A DNA stretch of 64,000 bases, taken from NCBI GenBank assembly GCA_965215275.1, contig OZ244044.1, forward strand, positions 1,056,001 to 1,120,000, in the 5' to 3' direction. Below the pieces are notes generated by a model. It worked only from the letters and a program-made list of their open reading frames with translations. It was not told the origin of the DNA and searched no databases. The translations under genes and the position numbers were made by a program. This document shows, piece after piece, positions 25,902-50,043 of this stretch. The first letter of the stretch is position 1. Every line of letters begins with the position of its first letter. This stretch comes from Thermodesulfobacteriota bacterium (GTDB lineage Bacteria > Desulfobacterota_D > UBA1144 > Nemesobacterales > JAJCZQ01).

Positions 25902-25971
25902 TGTTGAACTGAAAAAACATTGACTGCCGCCGAAAAACGCTTTTTAAATAGGGAATTATATATTTATCCAC

Positions 25972-26001
25972 TTGACATTCGTTTATAATACGAAGTAAAA
26001 T
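25972..26001 (+). promoter_or_regulatory. Sigma70-type promoter of S8 copy 1
   Basis: TTGACA-18-TAAAAT; conserved at 46130-46159 and 62390-62418; ATG 9 nt after the -10 in all three. Confidence 0.75.
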
Positions 26002-26010
26002 ATAAATGTT

Positions 26011-29000
26011 ATGAAAAATTTCATGAAAAATTCAAACATAAAAACACGTAGTTCCATTACCCCCCCCCCGTGTATACGTGACCTTTCATCTGGATATAAG
26101 TATTTTTTAAGAACAATGTTTAAGATAACCCCCCCCCCCATCTAAGTCATTACTAACCTTAGTCTTATTTATTCTGTGTTTGATAGTAATAGCTGCAAGA
26201 GCAGAGAGCAGCCTGGAAGAAACATTATCTGAATGCAGAGGTATGAGTGCAGATGTGGAAGATCCGTTATACGGATGTCAGTGGCATCTGAAGAACACTG
26301 GGCAGTTTATTTATTCAGGAAAGGAAATAACAGCAGGAGAAGATATAAACATAGAAGGAGTGTGGAACGAAGACGTATACGGTACCGGAATTAACGTAGC
26401 AATAGTAAGTGACGGTATCGACCTTTCACATGAGGACCTTTCTGCAAACGTCCGTTCCGGACCGAACTATAGTTATTCTGAAAGAAATAATTCTGAAGAG
26501 AACAGTTCTGAAAAAGATAGTTCAGAAAGAGATGATCTTTCAGACGGTTCATCCTTTACCGGAACACGAGCGGCAGGTGTTATTGCAGCAACTGGATATA
26601 ACGGACTGGGAGTAAGAGGAACAGCACCGGGTGCGAGTATATACAGTTACAGGTTATCCGGTGATCTCAGGGAAGCGGACGCGGTGGTCCGTAATAAGGA
26701 AATAACAGCTGTATCGGTTAACGGCCTGGGATCTGAGGACGGAGCTTTTTTTCAGGAGGCTTCAACTTCCTGGGAAGAAGGAGTGGAACTTGGAATAAGT
26801 AAAGGGTTTTATGGTAAAGGAGTGTTTTACGTCTGGGGAGCAGGGGACGGTCATGAAAGAGGAGATCAGGCTAATTTTTCTGAATATTCTAATTACTACG
26901 GCGTAACTGCCGTTTGTTCAACTGACGGTTTTGGAAAAAAGAGTATTTTTTCAGAAGAGGGAGTAAATCTATGGGTATGTGCACCTGGTTCTGATATTGT
27001 AACTACTGATAACAAAAACGATTACGTTGTAACTTCCGGAACATTTCTATCAGCTTCACAGGTTGGAGGAGTGGCAGCACTGCTGAGAGAGATAAACGGG
27101 AATCTGAGCTGGAGGGATATAAAGCTTATACTTGCGGGTTCAGCACGGCAGAACGATTTTTTTGATCCGAGCTGGGAGACTGGAGCTGTTAAATACGGTT
27201 CTGATACGGAAAGATATAATTCTAATCCTAAGTATGGTTTTGGCGTGGTAGACGCAGAAGCAGCTGCAGAACTTGCAAAAAGCTGGAAAGGCGTTGGAGA
27301 GATGAGGACCATTACAGCTTCTTCAGATAATGAACTGACAATTCCTGATGGAGATGGAGAAGCGGACGGGGTCCTTGTTTCCAGACTTATGATACCGGAC
27401 CTTGAAGAGGTAACATTTACGGAGTTCGTTGAAGCTGAGCTTGTTCTTTCGTGTGACTGCTTACAGGACCTTAATATACAGATAACCTCTCCTTCCGGGA
27501 CAGTATCTGAACTTGTGCGGGAGGTTGTAAGGGGATCTTCGAATGAAGAAGAAAACTGCGTCAGTTACCTGAGAAGAACACATCGTTTCGGGTCGGCAAG
27601 ACACCTCGGAGAAGACCCTTCCGGAGAATGGATCCTTCATATAACTGATACTGCTTATGGAGATGAAGAAAATGAAGAAAACACCGTTACCCTGCACTCA
27701 TGGAGCGTTAAGGTGTATGGACATTTTTATCAGGGATCTGGCAGTGAGATCACTCCTAAAGCTTTAACCTTCGGCGGTGCGACGATCCCAACCCAGAATT
27801 ATTTTGTAGGAGAAGCAATAACACCAGTAATGCTGCCTGAGGCAACCGGGGCAAGCGACATAACATACAGTTTTAATCCTGCTTTAGCAAGAGGATTGGA
27901 ATTTGATCAGGATACCCGAACTATAAGCGGAACACCAGCTATTACTCATGTGTCAGGTCGTTTGTATTCATATGTTGCAAGAGGTGGCGGACGGATTGTA
28001 ACTATACCTTTTACTATTAGAATTAGCCCTCGACGAGTGCCGACCTTCGGCAATCAGACGGTAGAAAATCAGGTTTTTGTTAATGGTTCAGCAGTAACGT
28101 TAACTCTGCCTCAGGCTACCGGAGGTAACGGAACTTTAAATTACAGTTTAACTAATAGTATAGGTGATCCAATTAAAATTAATGGATTGGATTATAACGA
28201 AAACACCAGAACGTTAAGTGGAACGCTCAACGTTTCTCCAAGTGGATTACCTATAACTCAAACTTATACCTACAAGGTAACTGATGATGACGGTGATTCT
28301 GACAGTATTACTTTCTCTATTACTATAACGGACCTGGCCTTTGAACACTATCCTCTAACTCATCTGATTTTTGTAGCAGGGAGGCAAGTAACACCACAAG
28401 TAGAGCTACCTGAAGCAACTGGAGGGACTGCTCCATTAACTTACAGTTTAACTCCTGATTTACCTCTTGGATTGAGTTTTAATGAAGTTACGCGGGTTAT
28501 AAGTGGCACACCAACTATTGGGATATCTGATACTGATTATACATATACTGTTACTGACGCAGATGGAACTACGGTGGAGTTTACATTTATTGTTCAGATA
28601 AGAGCAAGTTTTGATAATGTAACGATAAATAATAAGGTGTATATAGTCGGTACAGCAGTAACGGAAGTGCTGCCTGAGGCAATTGGACATAATGAAACGG
28701 TAACCACCTACGGTTTAACCCCTACATTACCAGCTGGACTGGACTTTAACACGGCTACCCGAGAGATAAGAGGAACACCGACTACTGCAACGTCTGAGAC
28801 TATGTATACATACAGAGTAGATGACGGAAATGGATTCACTAATGACGATTTAACTTTCAGTATCACGGTAAGGGATGCAACTGTACCTACTTTCAGTGGT
28901 GAGACTATAGATGATCAGGAGCATACAGCAGGGGTTCAGATAACACCAGTAACGCTGCCTGAGGCAACTTCAGGAGATGCTCCGTTAACATACCGTTTAA

Positions 29001-29851
29001 CCCCTGCCTTGCCTGATGGATTGATCTATAACAATATCACCGGAGTTATAAGCGGAACACCGACTGCTGCAATGTCTGAGACTATGTATACATATACAGT
29101 AACGGATAATGATGGAGATACGGATGAACTGACGTTTAATATTGAGGTAGCAGCAAGCTTCAGCAACGTAACGATAGAAGATAAGGTGTATATAGCAGGT
29201 ACAGCAGTAACGGAAATGCTGCCTGAGGCAACTGGACATAATGGAACGGTAACCTACAGTTTAACCCCATCATTACCAGCTGGACTGGACTTTAACACAG
29301 CTACCCGGGAGATAAGTGGAACACCTTCTGCTGCAACGTCTCAGACTACTTATACATATACAGTTACTACTGGTGCAGGAGGACCTGCACGAACTTTGAC
29401 ATTCAGGATAACGATAGAAGAAGACAGCGAACCGGACTTCAGCGTGACGACGATAGAAGATCAGGTGTACATGGGGAGATCAATAAGGTTGCCGGTAGCA
29501 ACGGGAGGGAATGCACCGTTAGTATACAGTATAACGCCTCCCTTACCTCCTAGGTTGAGATTGGACAGAAACACAGGGGTCATAAGCGGGACGCCCGCGA
29601 GTGCGTCGTCTGAGAGGACCTACACGTACACGGTAACGGACAGGGACGGAGACATGAAAGAGTTGACCTTCAGGTTCAGTGCAGCGGCTCCGCCACCGAC
29701 AGGTAGTGATCCAGGCGGAGGTGGAGGAGGATGTGCTGTATCAGAGCAGAGCAGTGTTGATGAAGATATTCTCGGAGTAATGGCATGTCTGATGCTTATA
29801 CCTGTATCAGTAGTTATCAGAAGGAAAAGAAGAGCTCAGATAAAGATGTAG
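26011..29851 (+). CDS. Kexin/furin-like S8 pseudoprotease + P-domain + 7 Ig-like repeats + GGGGC-TM anchor, copy 1 (frameshifted at C11 tract 26129-26139)
   Basis: DPLYGCQWHL, LSWRDIK, YGFGVVDA, P-domain DL.I.ITSPSGT, LP.GL.F....ISGTP repeats; frame from ATG 26011/26116 stops at 26143 unless one C is lost. Confidence 0.88.
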
Positions 29852-30230
29852 TAATGCGGTCCTTTCTTAGGACACTTAACTAACTGAGATCTTTCCCATC
29901 AGAATATCTGCTGGCTGCTTATGGAAGAAGCTATATATCTTTGTTAAAGTCCTTTTTTGATATTCAATTTTCTTATTACCACAAGGATTTAACTACAAGG
30001 TTTTCCACCCGATACGAATATAATCTTGTTAAAAACATCTTTTTTATTCATTTGGCGCAGTTACATATATTATTCCCTTTTAAATAACTGTAATTCGTAA
30101 CGACCTTATTATCTGCCCACTGCTTCATTTACATAACTTTCTATATCGGGAATTTTCGTGCAATGTATAAAATATAATAAAATATTACAACTCTTGTAAT
30201 AAAATATTACACAGCTACAATACTGCCATT

Positions 30231-36814: not shown

Positions 36815-38016
36815 TTTTTCACAATCCCTTTAAGAGAATTATCAATGATCGTGACCGCGGCGTCTATCTCTTTTTCGGATACCGTCAAAGGAGGCAGGAT
36901 TCTCATTACCGTCCCGGCAGTATGAATGGTAAGAAGCCCGTTCTCAATACACTTTGCGATCACCTTGCCGGCGATCTCAGAAGATATGAACTCGATCCCG
37001 ATCATCAGGCCCATCCCCCTTGTATCCTTTATTATATCAGGATGCTCGGCCTGTATACGGTACAGGCCCTTAAGAAAGTAGCTGCCCATATCACGAACGC
37101 TGCGCAGCAGTTTCTCATCGTTTATCGTTTCCAGAACTGCCAGTGCACAACTGACGGCAAGTGGATTCCCACCAAACGTTGTACCGTGCGAACCAGAAGA
37201 TATGGTATCTGCAACCTTATCTTTCAGTAAAACCGCCCCGCATGGCACTCCGCCGCCAAGCGCCTTTGCAACCGTTATGATATCAGGTTCAATCCCTTCA
37301 TGCTCATACGCGAACAGTCTGCCCGTTCTTCCCATACCGGTCTGTATTTCATCAAGTATCAGTAAAACACCTTTTTCATCACATATTTTTCTGACTTCGT
37401 GCAGATACCCCGGCTCGGGTACGACCACCCCGTTTTCCCCCTGAACCGGTTCCACTATTACCGCACAGAACTCATCTTCTTTCAGACATTCTCTCATGTG
37501 GTCCGTTTCTCCGTAAGGTACGAATTCAAAACCTTCGAGCATGGGCTTAAAACCAGCCTGGTACTGTTTTGCCCCGGTTGCACTTAAAGCACCATAAGTC
37601 CGTCCGTGAAAAGAGCCGTGCATGGACACGATGTTATGTTTTTTACCATTGAGAGTGCCCCATTTTCTTGCAAACTTGATCGCACCTTCAACGGCTTCGG
37701 TACCCGTATTGCAGAAAAACACCTTGTCGCAGACGGAATTCTCAACCAGATCTCTGGCAAGCCTTGCCTGCGGTTCCATATAAAAGAGATTAGACCCGTG
37801 GATGATCTCCCTGCTCTGCGAAGCTATTACGCTCAGAAGGGCAGGATGGGAATGTCCGAGGCTCGTTACTGCAATACCCGTGGTAAAATCAAGCAGCCGC
37901 TTACCTTCACTGTTCCAGACCCAGCAGCCTTTACCTCTTTTGATCGCCAAGGGTATTCTTCTGTACGTCCCAAGAACATACTTATCTACCTCGGAGATGA
38001 TCTCATCGGAGTTCAC
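36811..38016 (-). CDS. argD: Acetylornithine aminotransferase
   Basis: FHGRT, DEIQTG, AKALGGG, HGTTFGGN; arg operon context. Confidence 0.93.
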   Translation of the reverse strand: MNSDEIISEVDKYVLGTYRRIPLAIKRGKGCWVWNSEGKRLLDFTTGIAVTSLGHSHPALLSVIASQSREIIHGSNLFYMEPQARLARDLVENSVCDKVFFCNTGTEAVEGAIKFARKWGTLNGKKHNIVSMHGSFHGRTYGALSATGAKQYQAGFKPMLEGFEFVPYGETDHMRECLKEDEFCAVIVEPVQGENGVVVPEPGYLHEVRKICDEKGVLLILDEIQTGMGRTGRLFAYEHEGIEPDIITVAKALGGGVPCGAVLLKDKVADTISSGSHGTTFGGNPLAVSCALAVLETINDEKLLRSVRDMGSYFLKGLYRIQAEHPDIIKDTRGMGLMIGIEFISSEIAGKVIAKCIENGLLTIHTAGTVMRILPPLTVSEKEIDAAVTIIDNSLKGIVKK

Positions 38017-38894
38017 AGCGTTATCTCCGTTCCTATTCCAGCATCGGTAAAAAGTTCAAGTATCAATGCCCGTTCCAACGTACCATCTATAATATGGGTC
38101 TTTTCAACCCCTTCATGAAGTGCTTCAAGAGCGCAGACCACTTTCGGTATCATGCCCTGCGAGATGATATTTTTTCCGATCAGGTTTCGTACCTCGGACT
38201 CGGTCAGAGAGGAAATAAGCTCCTTTTGTTCATCAAGTATCCCCGGAACGTTGGTAAGAAATATCAATCTCGTGGCATTTAAGGCACCTGCGATCTTACT
38301 TGCCACGTGGTCGGCGTTTATATTATACGTACTGCCTTCATCATCATATCCTACAGGAGCGATCACGGGAATGTAACCTTTATCTTCCAGTGTCCTTATC
38401 AAACCGGGGTTTATCTTCTCTACTTCCCCGACCATGCCAATATCCGCATCTGGAGGGATGTTTATTCCGTTCTTTTCAGCAAGCCTGTCAAGGTTTATTT
38501 TTTTAGCTGTTATTATCTTTCCTTCCTTACCTGAAAGTCCGACGGCTTTTCCGCCGTAATGATTTACGCAGGAGATAATCTCCTGATTTACCTTGCCCAC
38601 AAGGACCATCTCCACGATCTCCATGGTCTTTTCATCGGTAACCCTGAGACCCGCTATAAATTCAGACTCAATACCCTGCTGATTGAGATATTCAGCTATC
38701 TGCGGACCACCCCCATGTACGACTACGGGCTTGATCCCAACGTACTTCATAAGAATAAGGTCGTGAGCAAAACTGGACAGTTCCTTCCTGTCGATGCTCC
38801 CGCCGTATTTTATCACCACGGTCCTGCCATGAAAGATCTTTATATAAGGCAGGGCCTCGACTAGGATCTGTGCCTTGTTCATAAGCTGTTCCAT
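38013..38894 (-). CDS. argB: Acetylglutamate kinase
   Basis: VIKYGG, VHGGGP, NINAD, GMIPKV motifs. Confidence 0.97.
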   Translation of the reverse strand: MEQLMNKAQILVEALPYIKIFHGRTVVIKYGGSIDRKELSSFAHDLILMKYVGIKPVVVHGGGPQIAEYLNQQGIESEFIAGLRVTDEKTMEIVEMVLVGKVNQEIISCVNHYGGKAVGLSGKEGKIITAKKINLDRLAEKNGINIPPDADIGMVGEVEKINPGLIRTLEDKGYIPVIAPVGYDDEGSTYNINADHVASKIAGALNATRLIFLTNVPGILDEQKELISSLTESEVRNLIGKNIISQGMIPKVVCALEALHEGVEKTHIIDGTLERALILELFTDAGIGTEITL

Positions 38895-39018
38895 ATTTAT
38901 CCAGCCGCCTTTAATTGTGAAAAAGATGAATATATATTATGGGAATTATATACTCTGTTAGACAAAGACAGGCAAATAGCTTTGATAGTGCTGTAAAATT
39001 AGGGAATTATATATAGAT

Positions 39019-40473
39019 ATGGATAGTGAAGGAAGTGTGATCAGAAAGACGAGAGTAGACCTCAGGGCGGTTAAGTTGGATCCGTCTGCTCATAAGAAAC
39101 TGGAATCTATGTTAAACCAGCTTACCTATCTTTATAACCGAGCTCGTGAAGAAAGGATAAGATCATATGATAAATATGAGAAACTGATGAAATGGGGTTT
39201 ATCAGAAAAGAGATTTAAGACGTATTTCTATCCCCACTGGAAGTCTGGACTTTCTTATAATAAAGGTAATACAGTTAAACATATAGACAAGGTATATATA
39301 GCTCTTAACAGGGTTAGAAGTGAAGTCCGACCTTGTAACGACCCGTTAAACTGGAGAGAGTTATCAGAAAAAGAAATAGGAAAGAAGTCGATCAGTTACG
39401 AAGATCAGGCAAGATCACTGACGGAAATAAGGAACGACCTTTTACTGTCTGATGAGTTTAGTAAGGTTGACGCTCAAGCGCAACAGCGGACGTTACAAAG
39501 ACTGGATAAGGCTTATAAAGAATATCTAAAAGGGATACGTGGTCGTCCGAGATATAAGAACAGTAGCAGAAAGATAAAAAGTTTTGAAACTTACCAATGG
39601 AGTAGAGTTAAGAAACAAGACAGAAGAACTTCCTTGTCCGTAAAAGGAGCAGGCAGGATGAGTTTCAAAGGCAGGATACCGGAAGGAACTAAATACATAA
39701 GGATAGTAAGAACTGCTTTAAGAGTAGAGATACAGTTTGTATATGAAACAGTTGCAGGAGTGGACAGAGGGTCAGACAGACCGATAGGGATAGATCTCGG
39801 AGTGAAGAACAGAATTACCTTATCGGATGGAACTTTCTATAAAGGAACAGAAATAGACAGGAAGGAACTTAAAAGAAAGCAAAGAGCATTAAGCAGAGCT
39901 GAAAAAGGATCTAACAACAGAAACAAGAAGAAAACAGCTTATGCCAAAGAACGTGCAAGGACCACTGAAAGGGAACATAATAAAATACATGAATTAACTA
40001 CAGGGATAGTAAAGGGTCATGGTAATCATTTTATAGTAGAAGATCTGAAGTTAAAGAACATGACAAAGTCCGCTAAGGGGACATTGAAAGATCCTGGCAA
40101 GAAAGTAAAGCAGAAATCGGGATTGAACAGGTCTATACAGGAGCAGCAATTGGGAAAGGTCATTAGTCAGCTTACTTACAAGGTTGAGAGCACTGGAGGT
40201 AAGATAACTAAAGTTCCATCCCAATACACAAGCCAGACCTGTTCTGCATGCGGATACGTAGCTAAAAATAACAGAAAAGGAGAGTTATTTAAGTGCATGT
40301 CCTGTGGTTATACAGGCCATGCTGACTTAAACGCAGCTAATAACGTTCTCAAAAGAGGTTTATTCTTTTTGTCGGGTGGGAATAAGGACGAGAGTCTCCC
40401 GATGCAAGCTGGGAACATGATATCAAAAGAGAACGGGGTCAGAGGGACTCTGCTTGCAGAACAGTATATTTAG
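39019..40473 (+). CDS. tnpB: RNA-guided endonuclease TnpB family
   Basis: RuvC-I PIGIDLG, RuvC-II FIVEDL, zinc finger CSACG..CMSCG, RuvC-III HADLNAA; KQKSGLNR motif. Confidence 0.93.
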   Translation: MDSEGSVIRKTRVDLRAVKLDPSAHKKLESMLNQLTYLYNRAREERIRSYDKYEKLMKWGLSEKRFKTYFYPHWKSGLSYNKGNTVKHIDKVYIALNRVRSEVRPCNDPLNWRELSEKEIGKKSISYEDQARSLTEIRNDLLLSDEFSKVDAQAQQRTLQRLDKAYKEYLKGIRGRPRYKNSSRKIKSFETYQWSRVKKQDRRTSLSVKGAGRMSFKGRIPEGTKYIRIVRTALRVEIQFVYETVAGVDRGSDRPIGIDLGVKNRITLSDGTFYKGTEIDRKELKRKQRALSRAEKGSNNRNKKKTAYAKERARTTEREHNKIHELTTGIVKGHGNHFIVEDLKLKNMTKSAKGTLKDPGKKVKQKSGLNRSIQEQQLGKVISQLTYKVESTGGKITKVPSQYTSQTCSACGYVAKNNRKGELFKCMSCGYTGHADLNAANNVLKRGLFFLSGGNKDESLPMQAGNMISKENGVRGTLLAEQYI

Positions 40474-40501
40474 TATTTGTATAATAGAGTATATAATTCC
40501 C
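40371..40501 (+). ncRNA. Putative TnpB omega/reRNA scaffold overlapping tnpB 3' end
   Basis: Stems TCGGG/CCCGA (40372/40398), TGCAAGC/GCTTGCA (40403/40452), AGAGTC/GACTCT (40391/40446); position typical of TnpB guide scaffolds. Confidence 0.5.
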
Positions 40502-40647
40502 TTGCTTAATGACAAGGTTCAACGAACTTACGGTCTGAAAGGGATAAGGTCCGAGTAAACAGTTCATCTGCTGAAGCAAATTGCTACAAATGTCCTTTAT
40601 TTATAATTTAACTAAGGTGTACTTTTGTAACGGTTTTAGGAATTCCG

Positions 40648-42225
40648 ATGATTAAACTATCTTCTCTGGTTCCATTTTTGATATTTTCCACCTGGCTGAT
40701 GCTTTCAGGAGAGATGGCAATATCCCAGGAAAGGCTGACCCTGTCCTTGGAAGAAGCCAAGACGACCGCACTTGTAAACAACAGGAACATAGAACTGCAG
40801 AAACAGAGCATAGGCTATGCAGAAGGTGACATAATAAAAGAAAAAGGGGCTTTTGATCCATTTCTGAGACTGAATACATCCTATTCCAATATTGAATCCC
40901 CCGTGATAAGTGCCTTTAATGAGAGCGGCAGATTAACAGAAAAAAGATTTAATATTGAAAACAGCGTAACCGGCAGATTATCAACGGGTACCTTCTACGA
41001 CCTGTACAGTTTCTCCGTTTCCAGAGTAGAGTCCGACTCGCCGGTAGAATCCCTGAACCCGGAGCTTTTTACATCTCTCGGCTTTGGGATTGGTCAGGAA
41101 CTGCTGAAGAACTTCGGTGTAAGCGTGAACAGGGCACGGCTGTTCGTCGCCAGAAAAAATCTGGAGATATCGAGGGTGCGGTTCGAGAAAGTCGTATCGG
41201 ACGTTCTGTTCGAGACAGAACAGTATTACTGGGATCTGGTCGCTTCCATACAGAACGTAAAACTTGAAAAAAGTGCACTGGAACTGGCGGAAGACCTGGA
41301 ACAAAGAAACACCGTTGAAGTAGAGGTCGGCACTTTACCGTCAGTAGCAATAACTCAGGCAAAGTCGGAGGTTGCTTTCAGGAACGTAAGTCTTTTAAAT
41401 GAGAAAAATTTAATGGAAAGGGCCGAGGATAAGCTTAAAAACGCTCTTGGACTGGTCTACAGCATCAAAGTCGTGCCGACCGAAAAGCCCGAGATCTACA
41501 TCGAAGAGAACATAGATGAGAACGAGGCACTTGCAACCGCTTTTAAAAACAGACCTGAACTTGCCGAAGTTTTGCTTGATATAGAGAAAAGTAAAAGACT
41601 GGTGAGATTTTATTCCAATCAGAAGTTGCCGAACCTGACAGTGAACGCCTTTTTGCAATTCCAGGGGGTGGGAGGGGACGAAAGATCAGACAGGTTGTTC
41701 TTTAATGCACAAAAGGAACCTATACAGGACAGTTTTCTGGGAGAATCAAAGGCGTTCAATACGCTTGTAAACAGGGATTTTCCCGGCTGGTCGGTCATGG
41801 GTACTTTCACCTATCCATTGTTCAACAGAGATGCCAAGGGGGATCACATAAAGGCAGTTGCAGAAATGAACAGACAGATGATCAGCTACAAGAAGGTAAA
41901 AGAGCAGATAGAACTTGAGGTCAGGGACGCCATAAGGGAGGTCAGGAACGGCAGAAAGAGAATAGACGCGACCCAGAAGGCCGTGGAACTGGCTGAAGAA
42001 GTGGTTATGAACGATGAAGAAAGACTTAAGGTCGGGATCGCTACCACAAGGGAAGTGCTCGAAGCACAGCGGGACCTGATCTATGCACAAACGGCACGGG
42101 TAGAAGCGATCGCTCAGTACAATATCTCTATCGCCGCTCTTGAAAAAGCCAAGGGAACGTTGCTGTTGAAAAACAACGTAGTGATCAAAGATAACGGCAA
42201 CTTTAACGTAGGTCTGGTTCAGTAA
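40648..42225 (+). CDS. TolC-family outer membrane protein
   Basis: Signal peptide, LSLEEA, RPEL, LPNL, EVLEAQRDL repeats. Confidence 0.9.
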   Translation: MIKLSSLVPFLIFSTWLMLSGEMAISQERLTLSLEEAKTTALVNNRNIELQKQSIGYAEGDIIKEKGAFDPFLRLNTSYSNIESPVISAFNESGRLTEKRFNIENSVTGRLSTGTFYDLYSFSVSRVESDSPVESLNPELFTSLGFGIGQELLKNFGVSVNRARLFVARKNLEISRVRFEKVVSDVLFETEQYYWDLVASIQNVKLEKSALELAEDLEQRNTVEVEVGTLPSVAITQAKSEVAFRNVSLLNEKNLMERAEDKLKNALGLVYSIKVVPTEKPEIYIEENIDENEALATAFKNRPELAEVLLDIEKSKRLVRFYSNQKLPNLTVNAFLQFQGVGGDERSDRLFFNAQKEPIQDSFLGESKAFNTLVNRDFPGWSVMGTFTYPLFNRDAKGDHIKAVAEMNRQMISYKKVKEQIELEVRDAIREVRNGRKRIDATQKAVELAEEVVMNDEERLKVGIATTREVLEAQRDLIYAQTARVEAIAQYNISIAALEKAKGTLLLKNNVVIKDNGNFNVGLVQ

Positions 42226-42383
42226 AATATATAAAAGCAGATAAACAGTGTTCAGTCAGCACAAGCCGAATTATTTAATTTGGGAATTATATACAATAGT
42301 GACGAAGCCTCCAATAAATAGTTGACAAACTATAGATTTGTCATTATTACAGGTAAGAAAATTAAATAACTGGAGGAAGTTAT

Positions 42384-43325
42384 ATGTCAAAGAAAGCACC
42401 TGGGAAATCATACAGGAAAGGGATATCGTTAGTAAAGTTATTCAGGAAATTCCCTTCTGATGCTGTTGCAGAGGAATGGTTTGTAAAACAGAGGTGGGGA
42501 AAGGAACCCGTATGTCCGTATTGCGGGACAAGAAACGTTCAGACCGGGACTGGTCATAAGACAATGCCGTACAGGTACAGGGAAAAAGGACGTTCGAAAT
42601 GGTTCAGTGCAAGGAGCAGGACAGTTATGCAGTCTTCTAATATCAGGTATCAGGCTTGGGCAGTGGCAATATATCTTTTTGCCACGTCATTAAAGGGAGT
42701 ATCAAGTATGAAACTGCATAGAGATCTGGATATTACGCATAGGTCAGCATGGCATTTATCGCATCGTATCAGAGAGGCGTGGAACAGAGAAGAACTGCAA
42801 GTGTTTACAGGCTCCGTGGAGGCAGATGAGACGTTTACAGGTGGAAAGGAGAGAAACAAGCATAACAACAGGCGTAGTCATACACGAGGACCTGGAGGGA
42901 AGTCCATTGTTGCAGGAATGAAGAACAGAGAGACAAACAGGGTAACAGCACAACCGGTTTCTGAACGTAGTAAAGAGGAAATACAGGGTTTTACAGTTAA
43001 GAACGCAGGTAGTGGAGTAAAAACATATACCGATGATCATAAAAGCTATACAGGGTTGCCTTATGAGCATGAGAGCGTGGATCATAGTGTAAGGGAGTAC
43101 GTTAAAGAGCAGGCACATGTAAACGGAGTGGGATCGTTCCGGGCAATGTTAAAAAGAGGATATACCGGCACGTACCACAGAATGAGTAAAAAGCATTTAA
43201 ATCGTTATGTAAATGAGTTTTCGGGGAGGCATAATATAAGAAGACTGGACACGGAAGATCAGATGGGAACAACAGCAAGGGCAATGTATGGAAAGACCTT
43301 GCCTTATAAAGAACTGATAAGGTAA
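42384..43325 (+). CDS. IS1595 transposase, probably inactive
   Basis: VEADET, YTDD motifs present; third catalytic motif reads NGVGSFR instead of NxxESFW; second Cys pair of the zinc ribbon lost. Confidence 0.88.
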   Translation: MSKKAPGKSYRKGISLVKLFRKFPSDAVAEEWFVKQRWGKEPVCPYCGTRNVQTGTGHKTMPYRYREKGRSKWFSARSRTVMQSSNIRYQAWAVAIYLFATSLKGVSSMKLHRDLDITHRSAWHLSHRIREAWNREELQVFTGSVEADETFTGGKERNKHNNRRSHTRGPGGKSIVAGMKNRETNRVTAQPVSERSKEEIQGFTVKNAGSGVKTYTDDHKSYTGLPYEHESVDHSVREYVKEQAHVNGVGSFRAMLKRGYTGTYHRMSKKHLNRYVNEFSGRHNIRRLDTEDQMGTTARAMYGKTLPYKELIR

Positions 43326-43377
43326 TATGAATAATGTTACAGGATAAAAAACAGACCAAAAAACAAAGAAACTTGCA

Positions 43378-43566
43378 ATGACGAACAGGAAAAAAACAAT
43401 AGAGATCTTGCCAGGCAGTTATGAACCGACAGAAGAAGAGAAAGAGCATCCGTTTTCTATTGATACAACTCCGCAAAAGTCAGCAAAAGCTATCCTCCAG
43501 CCTGTCAACGTTAAAAAGAAGGATGTAAAGAAACACGTTGCTGAACGTTCAAAAAACAGGAAATGA
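43378..43566 (+). CDS. Small basic passenger protein in IS1595
   Basis: 62-aa ORF between transposase stop and right TIR. Confidence 0.55.
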   Translation: MTNRKKTIEILPGSYEPTEEEKEHPFSIDTTPQKSAKAILQPVNVKKKDVKKHVAERSKNRK

Positions 43567-43663
43567 TCCAGGTTTCGTCACTATTGTATATAATTCCCAT
43601 TTAATTTAACTGTCTCAAATACTTTTATTTTTGATATAACTTACTGAAATAATTTAGTTTTTA

Positions 43664-44185
43664 TTGACAAAATGGTTATTATATAATATACTTTTATACA
43701 TACTAATAATGAAACTTTTTAACAGACTGAATAAAAAAGTCACTAAGTTTTTGTCAAAAAAAGTCCTATTCAAAAGGTTTATCTCTAAAAAAAGAGATAA
43801 AAAAGACATATGTCAATTAATCCCTAATATAATAAATGCTGATAATAATTGCGCTCTTATTGCACTTCATCTTTTGTTTCCAAAAATTCCGGAAGATAAA
43901 ATATTAGACGCATTTTACCATTGTTGCGAAAAGTGGCCAAATGAGGGAGTTACAAACAAAGAGTTTAATATTGCTCTTAAATTTTTAAACCTGGACAAAA
44001 AAGTTTGTTATCACGGAAATGAAACAATTGTTCAATTACTATTAGCACATAAAGATAGAGCTTTTATAAGTTTAGTACACGGACACTTTTTGGTTATTTC
44101 GTTCGGTAGAATTTTAGAGTTTTTCAGTTGTTATTGGACTAACTGTAAAGAAGCAAAAGTCTATTGTTATTGGGAAAAACTTTAG
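43664..44185 (+). CDS. Hypothetical papain-like (C39-like) cysteine peptidase
   Basis: NNCALIAL...GVT..EF...GHFLVI Cys/His pattern; AT-rich; start uncertain. Confidence 0.5.
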   Translation: MTKWLLYNILLYILIMKLFNRLNKKVTKFLSKKVLFKRFISKKRDKKDICQLIPNIINADNNCALIALHLLFPKIPEDKILDAFYHCCEKWPNEGVTNKEFNIALKFLNLDKKVCYHGNETIVQLLLAHKDRAFISLVHGHFLVISFGRILEFFSCYWTNCKEAKVYCYWEKL

Positions 44186-44814
44186 CAAGGGGCATAGTTT
44201 CTGTATTTTTTATGACATTTGCGAAACTCTTTAGACTCTGGATTTTGCAAATGATGTAACAGCATCATAAATCCAACTGAAGTTGCCTCCATTATTATTG
44301 CTGTATATGAACCGTAATCGCCATAACCATCATCGCCGGCGTTTTCTAAACTTAGAGGCTTTGGGTTCCAAAAGCAGGTATATTCTGAAAAGTGTTTTTT
44401 GATACCAACACCAATAGAAAGCGTTTTAATGATTTCTCCTGCTCTGCCAACTTCATTGCACAACTCGCCACAAGTAATACGAGCATCATTGGTATCTGGA
44501 ACATTAATAACAATCTGAGAATCACTTACAGTATCCCTCGCCTTTATAGCTTCTGAAGGAATGTCTGGAGTGTGTCTTTTCAGATGATGGGGTATGATCT
44601 TGATTTCAATTTCTGAGTTAATAAGGTTTGTTAATTTATCTTTTAAAACATAAACTTTATATTTACCAATATCAGTCCGTATGAAATTTCCTCTGTTTAG
44701 GTTGCTTATATCAACTTTATCCCCATCTATAAGAGCTAAATGTTTAGCCCCAGTCCTTACTAACATTTCAGCAAATACACTTCCAACGGCACCGCAACCA
44801 ACAATACAAAATTT
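44182..44814 (-). pseudogene. ThiF/E1-like adenylyltransferase, 5' end replaced by IS1595
   Basis: IVGCGAVGS, IDGDKVDISNLNR, GKYKV; the first residues of the listed ORF come from the IS terminal repeat. Confidence 0.8.
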
Positions 44815-44855
44815 GGGAACTATATAGGAAAGTTGACAAAATCCCATAACTCCCT

Positions 44856-45041
44856 TTAATCATTAACTTCTTTTATAAGAGGATTTCCTTTAGGATCTAC
44901 TACTAATTTAAACCTTTTTTTCAGTTCTTCTTTGGTTGGTTTTTTAGGTCGTTTATGCGGGATCGAACCCATTTTTAACAACATCTTTGATGCTTTATCT
45001 ATTGCTTGTTCTTTTTCTTTTTTTGCTTTTAATCTTTTCAT
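44856..45041 (-). CDS. Small basic passenger protein in IS1595
   Basis: 61-aa Lys-rich ORF downstream of transposase, inside TIRs. Confidence 0.55.
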   Translation of the reverse strand: MKRLKAKKEKEQAIDKASKMLLKMGSIPHKRPKKPTKEELKKRFKLVVDPKGNPLIKEVND

Positions 45042-45095
45042 TATAAAACAAATAACTATTAAATATGATCAAGACTCCTCCATCATATGTCATCA

Positions 45096-46017
45096 TTACT
45101 GTGTTAACTCTTCAAAGGTTATAGTTTTTCCTGCCATATTTCTAAAAAGTGCATCCAGTTGATCTTGCGTGTCTGTTTTTACATTACCTTCATTTAACCT
45201 GAACGAAAACTCATCTATATATTTCTTAAGATGTTTTTTATTCCAATTGTGATATACACCTTTGTATCCACCCTTTAATACTGCCCAGACACTTTCAACC
45301 CCGTTTGTAGAAGCCATCGTATTTACAAACTCTTTTGCCCAATGATCGACCGTCTTATGCTCAAATTCTCTATCTGATAAACCTCTGTATCCTCTATGCT
45401 CATCTGTGTATATAATGGAACCTTCTGCAATGTTCTCTTTTATCTCTCTTGAAAGAGTTTCACTCTCTCTGTTCCGGATCACTTTTGCTCTGGTTCTGCC
45501 TCCCTTCTCCCTCATACCTGATATACAGACCTTTCCTGCAACTCCTCTGCCTTTATTTCGTTTCTTGCTCCCGTGCTTGTTCTTCTCAAGTCCACCTATG
45601 TATGTCTCGTCTATCTCTACTTCTCCTTTCAATAATACTTCCATATTACTTCCACAAGCAAGTCGCAACCTATGCAGCATATACCAGGCTGTTGTCTGGG
45701 TTACTTCTAACTCCTTGCTCAACTGTAAACTGCTTATTCCCTTTCGGGAAGTCATAAGCAAATATCCTGCAAATATCCACTTCCGCATACTCAAGTGGAG
45801 TGCCTGTTAAAGCAGTAAAATAACTCCGGCATTCCTTACACCAATACCTGCCATATGGTTTCTTCTGTCGTGTTATTTTCTTGCTGCTTCCACACTTTGT
45901 GCAGTTTATTTTCTTTCCCCAGCGTAATCCCTCAAAATACTTAATTACAGATTCTTTTGCAGGATACTTTTCCATTAACCCAAATAAACTGACCGTCTTC
46001 ACATGTCTTTTTTTCAT
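45096..46017 (-). pseudogene. IS1595 transposase, frameshift near 45790
   Basis: CTKCG/CKEC zinc ribbon in one frame; KGISS, EIDETY, YTDE, NGVESVW in another. Confidence 0.9.
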
Positions 46018-46168
46018 ACAATAAATATGATCTTCTATCATCTCTTGTCAACTCTTGTGTCAATATATCCCCTGTTTTGTCAACTTCCCTATATAGTTCC
46101 CTAAGAAAGGAAAGAGAAAGACGTTATACTTGACATTCGTTCATAATACCTGGTAAAATAAAAGAGTT

Positions 46169-49100
46169 ATGAAAAGTTCAAACATAAAAACACGTAGTTC
46201 CATTACCCCCCCCCCCCGTGTATACCTGACCTTTCAGCCTGGTATAAATATTTTGTAAGAACAATGTTTAAGATAATCCCCCCCCCATCTAAGTTATTAC
46301 TAACCTTAGTCTTTATTCTACTGAGTATCATGGTCATAGCTGCAAAAGGGCAGAGCAGCCTGGAAGAAACATTATCTGAATGCAGAGATATCAGTGCAGG
46401 TCTGGAAGATCCGTTATACGGATGTCAGTGGCATCTGAATAACACTGGACAGTTAAGTATTTCCGGAAAGAGAATAACAGCAGGAGAAGATATTAACGCA
46501 GAGGGAGTATGGAACGAAGAGGTATATGGTACTGGAATTAACGTAGCAGTTGTAAGTAATGGAATAGACCTTTCACATGAGGACCTTTCTGCTAAGGTCC
46601 GTTCGGAACTGAACTACAACTTTTCTGGAAAAGATAATTCAGACAGTTCAGAGTTAAGTGGTACACGAGCGGCAGGAGTAACGGCAGCGGCTGGATATAA
46701 CGGACTGGGAACAAGAGGAGTTGCACCTGGTGCGAGTATATACAGTAATAAGTTAACAGGAGATCTCAGGGAATCAGACGCAATGGAAGCAGGGGAAGCA
46801 ATGGTGCGTAATAAAGAAATAACTGCAGTATCCGTCAGCGACCGGGGATCTGAGGACGGAGTTTTTCTTCAGGGTGCTTCGGCTGAGTGGGAAGAGGGAG
46901 TGGAAGAGGGTATAAGGGAAGGGTTTTACGGCAGGGGAATATTTTACGTCCTGGGAGCAGGGGACGGACATGAGAGCGGAGATCAGGCTAATTTTTCTGA
47001 ATATTCCAATTACTACGGGGTAACAGCGGTGTGTTCAACGGACGGTTCTGGAAAGAAGAGCTTGTTTTCAGAAGAGGGAGTGAATCTGTGGGTATGTGCG
47101 CCTGGTCCTGATATAGCGACCACTGATAGCGACGACGATCACGCCGTGACGTCCGGAACTGTCCTTTCAGTTTCACGGGTCGCAGGTGTGGCGGCACTGC
47201 TGAGAGAGGTAAACGAAGACCTGAGCTGGAGGGATATAAAGCTTATACTTGCGGGTTCGGCACGGCAGAACGACGTTCCTGACATTAGCTGGGAGACTGG
47301 AGCGGTAAAATACGGTTCCGACGTGGAAAGATACAGATACAGTTCGAAATACGGTTTTGGCGTGGTGGACGCGGAGGCGGCCGCAGAGCTTGCCGGAAGC
47401 TGGAAAGGAGTGGGAGAAATGAGGACCGTTACAGCTTCCTCGGATAATGAACTGACGATCCCTGATGGAGAAGGAGAGGCGGACGGGGTCCTTACCTCCA
47501 GACTTATGATTTCGGACCTGGAGGAAATATTTACGGAGTTCGTTGAGGTAGAACTCGTTCTCTCGTGTGACTGCCTGCAGGACCTCAATATACGGATAAC
47601 CTCTCCTTCCGGGACAGTATCGGAACTTGTGCGGGAGTCTGCCAGTGAGTTTGTAAGGGGATCTTCGAATGAAGAAAACGACTGCGTCAGTTACCTGGGG
47701 AAAAAACATCGTTTCGGTTCGGCAAGACACCTCGGGGAAGACCCTTCCGGAGAATGGACCCTTAAGATATATAATACTGCTTCCGGAGATGAAGAAGATA
47801 CAGAAAATACCGTTACCCTGCACTCATGGAGCATCAGGGTATACGGGCACGGGAAGGAAGATACTTTAACGGACTTTGGCGGGGAGATCACTGCCAAGGC
47901 TTTAACTTTGGGTAATGTTCCTGGTGGTAGGCTGACCTGGACGCAACATAAGCTGGTAAACGCAAGGTTATTCGAGGCAGCCGGAGGCAGGCCGCCGTAT
48001 ACTTACAGTTTAGCTCCTTTACCTCCTGGATTGAATTTTAACGGAACCACCAGAATTATAAACGGGAGACCGACCGCTGCAGGTGACACCGACGTTCAGT
48101 ATACGGCAAGAGACGCAAATAACGATACGGCACGGAGTGACTTCGTTATAAGGATAACGGCGAACGCCGCGCCGGTTTTTGGCAGCAAGACGGTTGCTGC
48201 TCAGGTGTACACGGCAAGGAAAGCAATAGAACCATTGGAACTTCCCGAGGCAACGGGAGGGGATGGAACCTTGACTTACAATATAAGTGGTAACGTCAGG
48301 GGTATAGGGTTGAACTTTAACCGTAACACAAGGATACTGAGCGGAATGCCCACCAGTGTTACGCCTGGTATTACAGCCGTTTATACCGCCACTGACGCAG
48401 ATGGAGATACTGCCGAGCTGAGGTTCAATATACGGGTAAGACATCAGAACGACATACCGACCTTCGGCAGTCAGATGGTAGATGATCAGAATTGGGTTAA
48501 CGGCAGTGCGGTAAGGCTAACGCTGCCTCGTGCAAGAAACGGGAATGGAACGTTAACCTACGGTATAACCCCTGCTTTGCCTGATGGACTGGACTTTGAT
48601 CCTGGTACCAGAGTGCTGAGCGGAACACCGACCGCTGCGGCACCTGAGAACACTTACACGTATACGGTAACGGACAGTGATAACGATATTCATGAAAGTG
48701 ATTCTGACAGTCTGACCTTCAGGATAAGAATAAAAGCTGCAACTGAAGTCCCAAGTTTCGGCAGTCAGACGGTAGGTAATAAGATTTATACAGCAGGGGT
48801 TCAAATATCACCATTCACGTTACCTCTTGCAACGCAAGGAACTGGAATTACACTCAGGTTAACCCCTCGTTTACCTTCCGGATTGAATTTTAACCATGCT
48901 ACCGGAGAGATAAGTGGAATACCGACCACTGCAACGTCTGAGACTGATTATACATGGAGAGCAACGGACAGAGACGGATATACGGCTGAGATAACGTTCA
49001 GTATAACGATAAGAGCAGCAGACACGGAACCGACCTTCGGCGGTGAGACGACGGATGATCAGGAATACGTGGCAGGAAGTCAGATAACGCCGGTAACGCT

Positions 49101-50043
49101 GCCAGTGGCAACGGGAGGAAATGCTCCGTTAGCCTACGGTATAACCCCTGATCTGCCTGCTGGACTGGACTTTGATGAAAACGCCCGAGTGCTGAGCGGA
49201 ACACCTACTACTGCAACGAGTAAGAATACCTATACATATACTGTAACGGACGAAGATGGAGACACGGATGAAATTGAGTTCGGTATCACCGTGTCGGAGG
49301 ACACAATGCCGACCTTCGACGGTGAGACGATAGAAGACAAGGTGACCGTTAACGGCGTTACAGAAGTAATGGAAACGCTGCCTCTTGCAACAGGAGGGAA
49401 CGGAACGCTGACTTACAGTTTAACTGATGCCGGTTCAAATGCTTTGAATTTATTTGCCGGACTGGACTGGGATGACAACACCCGGGTGCTGAGCGGAACA
49501 CCCAATATCGGTTCAGCGCTGCTTCATCTGCTTCCTCGAACCGAGACTTACACGTGGACGGTAACGGACGAAGATGGAGATACAGCAGAGATAACGTTCA
49601 GTATAGTAATAGAAGAAGACAGCATGCCGGAATTCAGTGTGACGACGATAGAAGATCAGGTGTACAGGGGGAGATCAATAATGTTGCCGGTAGCAACGGG
49701 AGGGAATGCACCGTTAGTATACAGTATAACGCCTCCCTTACCTCCTGTATTGAGATTGAACGAAAACACCGGGGTAATAAGCGGGACGTCCGTCCGTGCG
49801 TCATCTGCTGCTACTTACAGGTATACGGTAACGGACAGGGACGGAGACATGAAAGAGTTGACCTTCAGGTTCAGTGCAGCGGCTCCGCCACCGACAAGTA
49901 GTAATTCAGGCGGAGGTGGAGGATGTGCTGTATCAGATCAGAGCATCGCCATTTTTGATATTCTCGGAGTAATGGCATGTCTGATACTTATACCCGTGTC
50001 TGTAATTATCAGAAGGAAAAGAAGATCTCAGATAAAGACTTAG
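46169..50043 (+). CDS. S8 pseudoprotease surface protein copy 2 (open from ATG 46264; leader from ATG 46169 out of frame at C12)
   Basis: 1259-aa ORF with signal peptide, S8, P-domain, 7 Ig-like repeats, GGGGGC-TM-RRKRR tail. Confidence 0.9.

Follow-up and report, generated by a model that had tools for sequence, protein, structure and literature searches.

A likely non-autonomous tnpB element with IS1595-type ends and a predicted guide RNA built around its right inverted repeat

TnpB nucleases bounded by the ends of DDE transposons have been described before. Altae-Tran et al. (2023, PMC10691335) described six DDE-linked TnpB branches, DDE-1 to DDE-6, with inverted ends and with solo copies moved in trans, and the supplement of that paper places a TA motif 8 bp upstream of the element end in DDE-5. 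For these branches the main text names only IS630, and IS1595 occurs in the paper only in a profile list. A 2026 review (PMC13565253) gives ISL2, IS630 and IS1031 as DDE partners of TnpB and describes such pairing as rare. Target duplications made by IS1595 elements are usually 8 bp long (PMC8101967). For TnpBs of IS605 elements, homing has been shown as retention (10.1101/2023.03.14.532601) and drive has also been shown (10.1101/2025.02.20.638934), and in another TnpB a pseudoknot at the end of the RNA scaffold is needed for activity (PMC10711439).

Here we analysed a tnpB locus in a window of 64,000 nucleotides (the whole stretch of DNA under study), which is part of a genome assembled as one contig (C1) of 1.99 Mb. 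A sequence-only reading of the window had proposed a non-canonical partnership between TnpB and a transposon. TnpB in DDE-type ends, also as solo copies, is known since 2023 (PMC10691335), so that what stands of the proposal is the partner: in the literature searched, which included few subscription papers, we found no paper with a TnpB in IS1595 ends, and the supplementary files of PMC10691335 may cover it. We think it probable that the element is a non-autonomous tnpB element in IS1595-type ends, moved in trans and kept by TnpB homing.

The element, its ends and its copies

The element (38941-40501) is 1561 bp long and consists of a single long gene, tnpB, flanked by 29-bp IS1595-type inverted repeats (Table 1). 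The earlier description of an intact tnpB lacking tnpA between such repeats was borne out: the two arms are complementary at 26/29 positions, the D-E-D and zinc-finger residues are present, and an ORF listing of the element contained no transposase ORF. The left host gene we take to be argB-like, with arginine genes adjoining it.

Table 1. Features of the element and its surroundings, in window coordinates
Feature	Position	Strand	Basis or remark
Left host gene, amino-acid kinase family, presumably argB-like	38013..38894	-	PF00696
Predicted target-adjacent motif, TA, just 5' of left duplication	38931..38932	+	Sequence; fits purine rule; putative function
Left copy of likely 8-bp target duplication, TATATTAT	38933..38940	+	Right copy missing in this genome; mismatch to right flank 4/8
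Left terminal inverted repeat, IS1595 type	38941..38969	+	Arm comparison; boundaries common to sister copies
Inner copy of end motif	39002..39013	+	At promoter/5' leader position; not used as end
tnpB, 484 aa	39019..40473	+	Pfam and NCBIfam profiles; catalytic and C4 zinc-finger residues intact
Predicted guide-RNA scaffold, overlaps tnpB 3' end, includes right inverted repeat	40369..40501	+	Pair counts with compensatory changes; terminal hairpin
Predicted pseudoknot	40378-40383 with 40496-40501	+	Covariation
Right terminal inverted repeat	40473..40501	+	Arm comparison
Predicted guide, flank read past right end	40502..40521	+	Scaffold boundary and position of purine motif
Right host gene, TolC/OEP-family outer membrane protein	40648..42225	+	Profile matches
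Neighbouring IS1595, 9-bp duplication, separate element, same end family	42282..43598	+	Profiles, end comparison
Second IS1595, transposase split in two frames	44815..46101	-	ORFs, profiles, end comparison

The first 13 bases of the element are also those of the neighbouring IS1595, an identity that the sequence-only reading had taken to link the two. The identity is real, but the 12-base end motif GGGRAYTATATA has 117 exact matches in the genome (2 for the reversed control), and 13 shared bases therefore cannot single out this neighbour. Further copies of the motif lie at window 25951-30077 and 32528. The inner copy at 39002, read earlier as a sign of nested ends, is equally real; it occurs in three copies of the window subfamily and in one fragment and is absent from the sister subfamilies. 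It was accompanied by a duplication in none of these three copies, and nested ends were rejected on this ground. It overlaps a promoter-like match that is no commoner than chance, with the promoter scan giving 3 sites against 4.4 expected.

As had been noted, the window copy has no target duplication in this genome, its flanking 8-mers differing at 4/8 and its 9-mers at 5/9 positions. In run X7, which comes from another sample, 8 additional bases, TATTATTA, directly follow 40501 and match the left flank imperfectly. This resemblance makes it likely that the right duplication of the window copy was lost by deletion in this genome. An empty site between argB and tolC, which the sequence-only reading had advised looking for, was seen in none of four runs, two of them thinly covered.

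Sister copies supply what this copy lacks. The genome holds 25 tnpB loci, of which six fragments were set aside, and end pairs of the GGGAATTATA type are found at all 19 near-complete loci that were counted (one pair was set by hand across a one-base gap). Two further full-length copies, 98.3% and 96.5% identical to the window element, share its exact boundaries, and both carry an 8-bp duplication, with 0 and 1 mismatch. Across the 19 loci the 8-bp duplication is exact in 9, within one mismatch in 12 and within two in 14, while one mismatch was reached in 67/8930 mismatched flank pairs used as control. The duplication is thus normally 8 bp long and not 9 bp as first expected. In addition, a contig of run X7 passes from the base before C1:1616480 straight on to the one after C1:1619604; it omits two adjacent tnpB elements and retains one copy of each duplication, making it an exact empty allele. 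These two elements lie back to back, 16 bp apart (L123:5481-8605), and the guides predicted for them would both be directed at one empty region, from opposite strands. Frameshifted copies persist in place.

Candidate transposases and the TnpB family

The genome contains 35 IS1595-like transposase loci, at least six of them full-length with the catalytic Glu motif (C1:540452, 675417, 1002026, 1304051, 1537614 and 1516018). The best autonomous match for the ends of the window element is the intact IS1595 at C1:1002026, with 22 and 20 of 26 positions. Different tnpB subfamilies match different autonomous ends, and another subfamily reaches 26/26 with C1:1516018. The neighbouring IS1595 was rejected as the best mover, since its transposase (42384-43325) has lost the catalytic Glu and its ends match those of the window element at only 18-19 of 26 positions. 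The ends of the second IS1595 in the window resemble those of another tnpB subfamily (22-24 of 26).

Several other features of the surroundings were recorded. The neighbouring IS1595 (42273-43607 with its flanks) has a 9-bp duplication, against 8 bp in its sisters. Both IS1595 copies of the window have a small second frame after the transposase, at 43378-43566 (62 aa) and 44856-45041 (61 aa), with no Pfam match. Between the two copies, AT-rich DNA (43664-44847) holds a 173-aa frame on one strand and a ThiF-family gene on the other, and at 46264-50043 lies a 1259-aa protein that, judged from its sequence, resembles a subtilase followed by Ig-like repeats. IS1595 elements of this genome also carry other cargo, of 2-4 kb; one of several such cargo elements, at window 25951-30077, contains a 1202-aa frame but no transposase within an end pair flanked by a 9-bp duplication.

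The window element lacks the DDE transposase of its own that marks an autonomous IS1595, and it also differs from IS200/IS605 and IS607 elements, having inverted repeats, belonging to a family with duplications, and lying near no Y1 or serine tnpA. None of the elements examined contained both a transposase and tnpB, and none had a fused or adjacent transposase. The IS607 transposase (NF033518) was not found in the genome, and its single Y1 match (PF01797) is weak (26 bits) and about 48 kb from the nearest tnpB. It is therefore likely that the element is moved in trans by an IS1595 transposase encoded elsewhere. The sequence-only reading had proposed just such a non-autonomous, IS1595-derived element. 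The 8-bp duplications of the sisters, the exact empty site and the intact IS1595 transposases with the same end family agree with it, and movement in trans is the part that we infer.

The tnpB product scored 174 bits on NF040570 (cut-off 100) and has the RuvC residues D259, E341 and D436 and the zinc-finger cysteines C408, C411, C426 and C429. With its 484 aa it exceeds a typical TnpB by about 70-80 aa, owing to an insertion near residues 60-120 that has low confidence in the structure model (pLDDT 83.6 overall). The best Foldseek matches of the model are the TnpBs of ISFba1 and ISDra2 (8iaz, 8h1j). Among homologues, the catalytic and zinc residues were intact in 95/99 proteins. Judged from dN/dS, which was 0.05-0.24 in 11/12 pairs and 0.53 in the closest pair, tnpB is under purifying selection. 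We conclude that the element is real and recently mobile, a non-autonomous element of IS1595 type whose TnpB likely works.

Outside this genome, TnpB was found in 8/40 relatives. IS1595-type end pairs, a few of them doubtful, were present at 95 of 151 distinct tnpB loci (19 own and 132 others), a count that is not a frequency, as the genomes sampled had been selected for presence of the end motif. The bounded loci outside the own genome belong to a genus of the same order, to Rhodothermales records and to one gammaproteobacterial record. Homologues elsewhere thus keep the same ends; the sequence-only reading had named a lack of conserved repeats at their boundaries among the evidence that would speak against it. 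Distant homologues, at about 30-37% identity, end like IS605 elements. The best matches in a plasmid search were 33-35% identical, a metagenome pattern scan for the right end gave one match, which had no tnpB and was attributed to chance, and a viral scan with a pattern that proved too loose gave tnpB at 0/120 loci.

These canonical relatives, together with the fact that TnpB mostly travels with Y1 or serine enzymes in the described systems, would suit a different history, in which an ordinary IS605/IS1341 or IS607 tnpB element landed in a small IS1595 remnant, so that the repeats would have no part in it and its guide would be the fixed stretch after GAACAG. That history is hardly credible, and we regard it as largely refuted already: the spacing to the end is constant in all subfamilies, the duplications lie outside the repeats and the empty site is exact, the genome has no IS607 and only the one distant Y1 match, and the stretch after GAACAG pairs with the repeat itself.

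In a tree of the TnpBs built with FastTree, those bounded by terminal inverted repeats (TIRs) formed two supported clades with canonical TnpBs between them. A single origin of all TIR-bounded TnpBs was rejected by the AU test (p-AU 0.0002, with the groups named after a first tree), so that on this phylogeny TIR-bounded TnpB has two origins. Nested in the other TIR clade, a 401-aa TnpB without inverted ends (L232:369-1753, G019:C4; also L041) precedes three repeats that measure about 37-39 nt and have a period of 66, and the repeat contains ATTCCC like the pseudoknot strand described below; this TnpB is possibly a young CRISPR-linked offshoot. A 597-aa frame (L043, G027:C13) has a weak TnpB-like C-terminal match and is likewise followed by repeats.

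The one-sided purine and the predicted guide RNA

In order to compare insertion sites, we retained those of the 95 end pairs with a duplication of at most one mismatch and ends of at least 15/20. The filter passed 59 sites, or 57 after removal of two shared sites; the other 36/95 pairs did not pass, which counts against the homing reading set out below. The base 5' of the left duplication (position -1) was a purine in 57/57 sites, G in 44 of them, whereas the mirror position to the right of the element was a purine in only 24/57 (Fisher p 3e-13). A relaxed set added a purine in 16/17 further rows, two of which are the removed duplicates. Positions beyond -2 were near background. The bias is thus confined to -1 and -2, and general strand composition was rejected as its cause. 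The -2/-1 dinucleotide varied with the TnpB group, being GG in 7/8 members of one Rhodothermales group, TA in 3/3 of one own-genome subfamily and TG in 5/8 of the index clade in this genome. The duplicated 8-mers vary freely except for their AT richness, and the conserved base sits 5' of them; they show no TATAAT pattern, and a role of the purine in an extended -10 promoter made by the target was dismissed on this ground. We conclude that the one-sided purine is likely to be the target motif of TnpB.

If tnpB were passive cargo, the purine would instead stem from the IS1595 subtypes that mobilise these elements, as an asymmetry in their choice of target. Such a view gains from the other cargo that IS1595 carries here and from a slight difference between left and right ends. 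In control elements with an IS1595 transposase and 8-bp duplications, however, the purine was found in 9/18 sites on the left and 10/18 on the right, a set that is small and pools IS1595 subtypes, as this view could point out. The control is unbiased, the dinucleotide tracks the TnpB groups, the RNA structure tracks changes in the repeat, and dN/dS is low, all of which make passive cargo very improbable.

The right end of the element appears to be part of an RNA. A stem lies about 120 bases before the element end, and its loop, which begins with GGGAAU, can base-pair with the final six bases of the right repeat. Over 38 sequences, 89.9% of this pseudoknot helix is paired, and in two lineages two of its positions have changed from A-U to C-G; in a shuffle control, 130/500 shuffles reached the observed number of changed pairs, and the changes trace to two events only. 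For the whole structure, 16 clade members from the own genome were 95.8% paired with 37 doubly changed cells, in related sequences with few events. Stem 1 was judged on a second alignment (A2), being off by one column in part of the first (A1). The stretch before the right repeat pairs with the repeat, and IS1595 ends lack such pairing. Over the last 36 bases, right ends folded better than left ends in 84/93 cases and better than swapped pairs in 87/93. For the window copy taken alone, the RNA region had no folding advantage over shuffles (z -0.28), and the terminal hairpin is weak, at -3.6 kcal/mol where the left end reaches -4.5 kcal/mol. An Rfam search of the scaffold region matched no family. 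Taken over the family, the right inverted repeat is likely to be built into a predicted guide-RNA scaffold.

Since the pseudoknot closes at the last bases of the repeat, the terminal CCC is the likely end of the scaffold. The guide would begin with the duplication, which in an empty allele comes immediately after the purine. Where the site is occupied, the left junction matches only 0-5 of the 8 guide positions 9-16, and CCC stands before each right junction of the own genome. An arrangement resembling that of Fanzor RNAs, which take the repeat and the duplication into the scaffold (PMC10711439), would place the duplication within the scaffold or the motif and the guide after it; a related variant has TnpB bind without useful cutting. 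We consider both very doubtful, given that the 8-mers are free to vary apart from AT richness, with the conserved base on their 5' side, and that the pseudoknot closes at the very last base of the repeat.

Proposed homing and comparison with known systems

The preferred reading, homing by TnpB, may be set out as follows. An intact IS1595 transposase from elsewhere would insert the element at AT-rich 8-mers, ignoring the purine. A transcript across the right end would fold so that the inverted repeat forms the last hairpin and the terminal AUUCCC one strand of the pseudoknot, and its guide would begin at the first base of the right duplication. TnpB would recognise a very short motif (a purine at -1, in many cases with T or G before it at -2) and then the duplication and flank, an arrangement that is continuous only in the empty allele. 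It would cut empty alleles, and the element would be copied into them when the break is repaired from the filled allele. The occupied site would be spared because its left junction matches only 8 guide bases and its right junction is preceded by CCC. Only insertions beside a purine would be driven to fixation or restored after loss, which would explain why no non-purine sites were seen. The persistence of broken, frameshifted copies indicates that loss by excision is not fast; purely restorative homing is therefore strained, and drive at fixation fits better. In the literature searched, an account of how IS1595 leaves its donor site was not found.

The same purine rule, without exception in 57 sites, could arise if TnpB and its RNA helped to choose the site, binding the motif and positioning the transposase such that insertions fall exactly 8 bp away in one orientation; the broken copies are also awkward for any selection after insertion. 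At the time of a jump, however, the guide corresponds to the site being left; the nuclease has stayed intact and is maintained by selection; a fused or adjacent transposase is absent; and drive gives the same pattern with known chemistry. We consider a role in site choice unlikely. Similarly unlikely, in our estimate, is a more ambitious combination, in which IS1595 ends captured TnpB twice, the motif shrank to a single purine, the RNA was rebuilt around the repeat, TnpB and its RNA steer the DDE transposase (a guide-independent, motif-directed integration not described before), and in one offshoot a small CRISPR-like array arose from the RNA end that derives from the repeat.

For the motif, the RNA boundary and the two origins, the genomic evidence is unusually clear. 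If homing is correct, the family is an example of an RNA-guided nuclease working for a transposase with which it has no target motif in common, in that the duplication becomes the start of the guide and the motif shrinks; pairing of TnpB with such transposases is considered rare in bacteria. Homing could be read out naturally from the insertion sites, which have their own control built in. The family also offers many compact nucleases with a predicted motif of 1-2 bases and a defined scaffold end, which could be useful for genome editing, and possibly a snapshot of the step from TnpB to a CRISPR effector.

Among known systems, the DDE-1 to DDE-6 branches (PMC10691335) are similar in having TnpB between inverted ends, its 3' end near the element end, and solo copies thought to be moved in trans. 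Those branches are defined by a transposase within 1 kb, whereas none was found inside an element here. DDE-5 shares a motif 8 bp upstream of the end, which in our sites is a purine in 57/57 and TA itself in 5/57; from the published description, DDE-5 may or may not be IS1595. With the TnpBs of IS200/IS605 (IS1341) and IS607 elements, the family shares the protein family and fold and, as predictions, an RNA that overlaps the end of the gene, a scaffold closed by a pseudoknot, and homing. In contrast to the hairpin ends described there, it has inverted repeats and 8-bp duplications, and its predicted motif is of 1-2 bases instead of 4-5. TnpA and TnpB share a motif in IS605 (10.1101/2023.03.14.532601), whereas the transposase here would have no preference for it. 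IS1595 elements with passenger genes, as far as described, likewise have GG-ended repeats, 8-bp duplications and ends common to autonomous copies in the genome; unlike them, the present element lacks a transposase and carries an RNA-guided nuclease, and the RNA predicted for this nuclease makes use of the right end. Finally, Fanzor1 and Fanzor2* (Yoon et al. 2023, PMC10711439) resemble this family in placing a nuclease in elements with terminal inverted repeats and target duplications, some of them non-autonomous, with the repeat in the scaffold, as is predicted here. The Fanzors are eukaryotic and their duplication joins the scaffold, whereas here the host is bacterial and the duplication is the predicted start of the guide.
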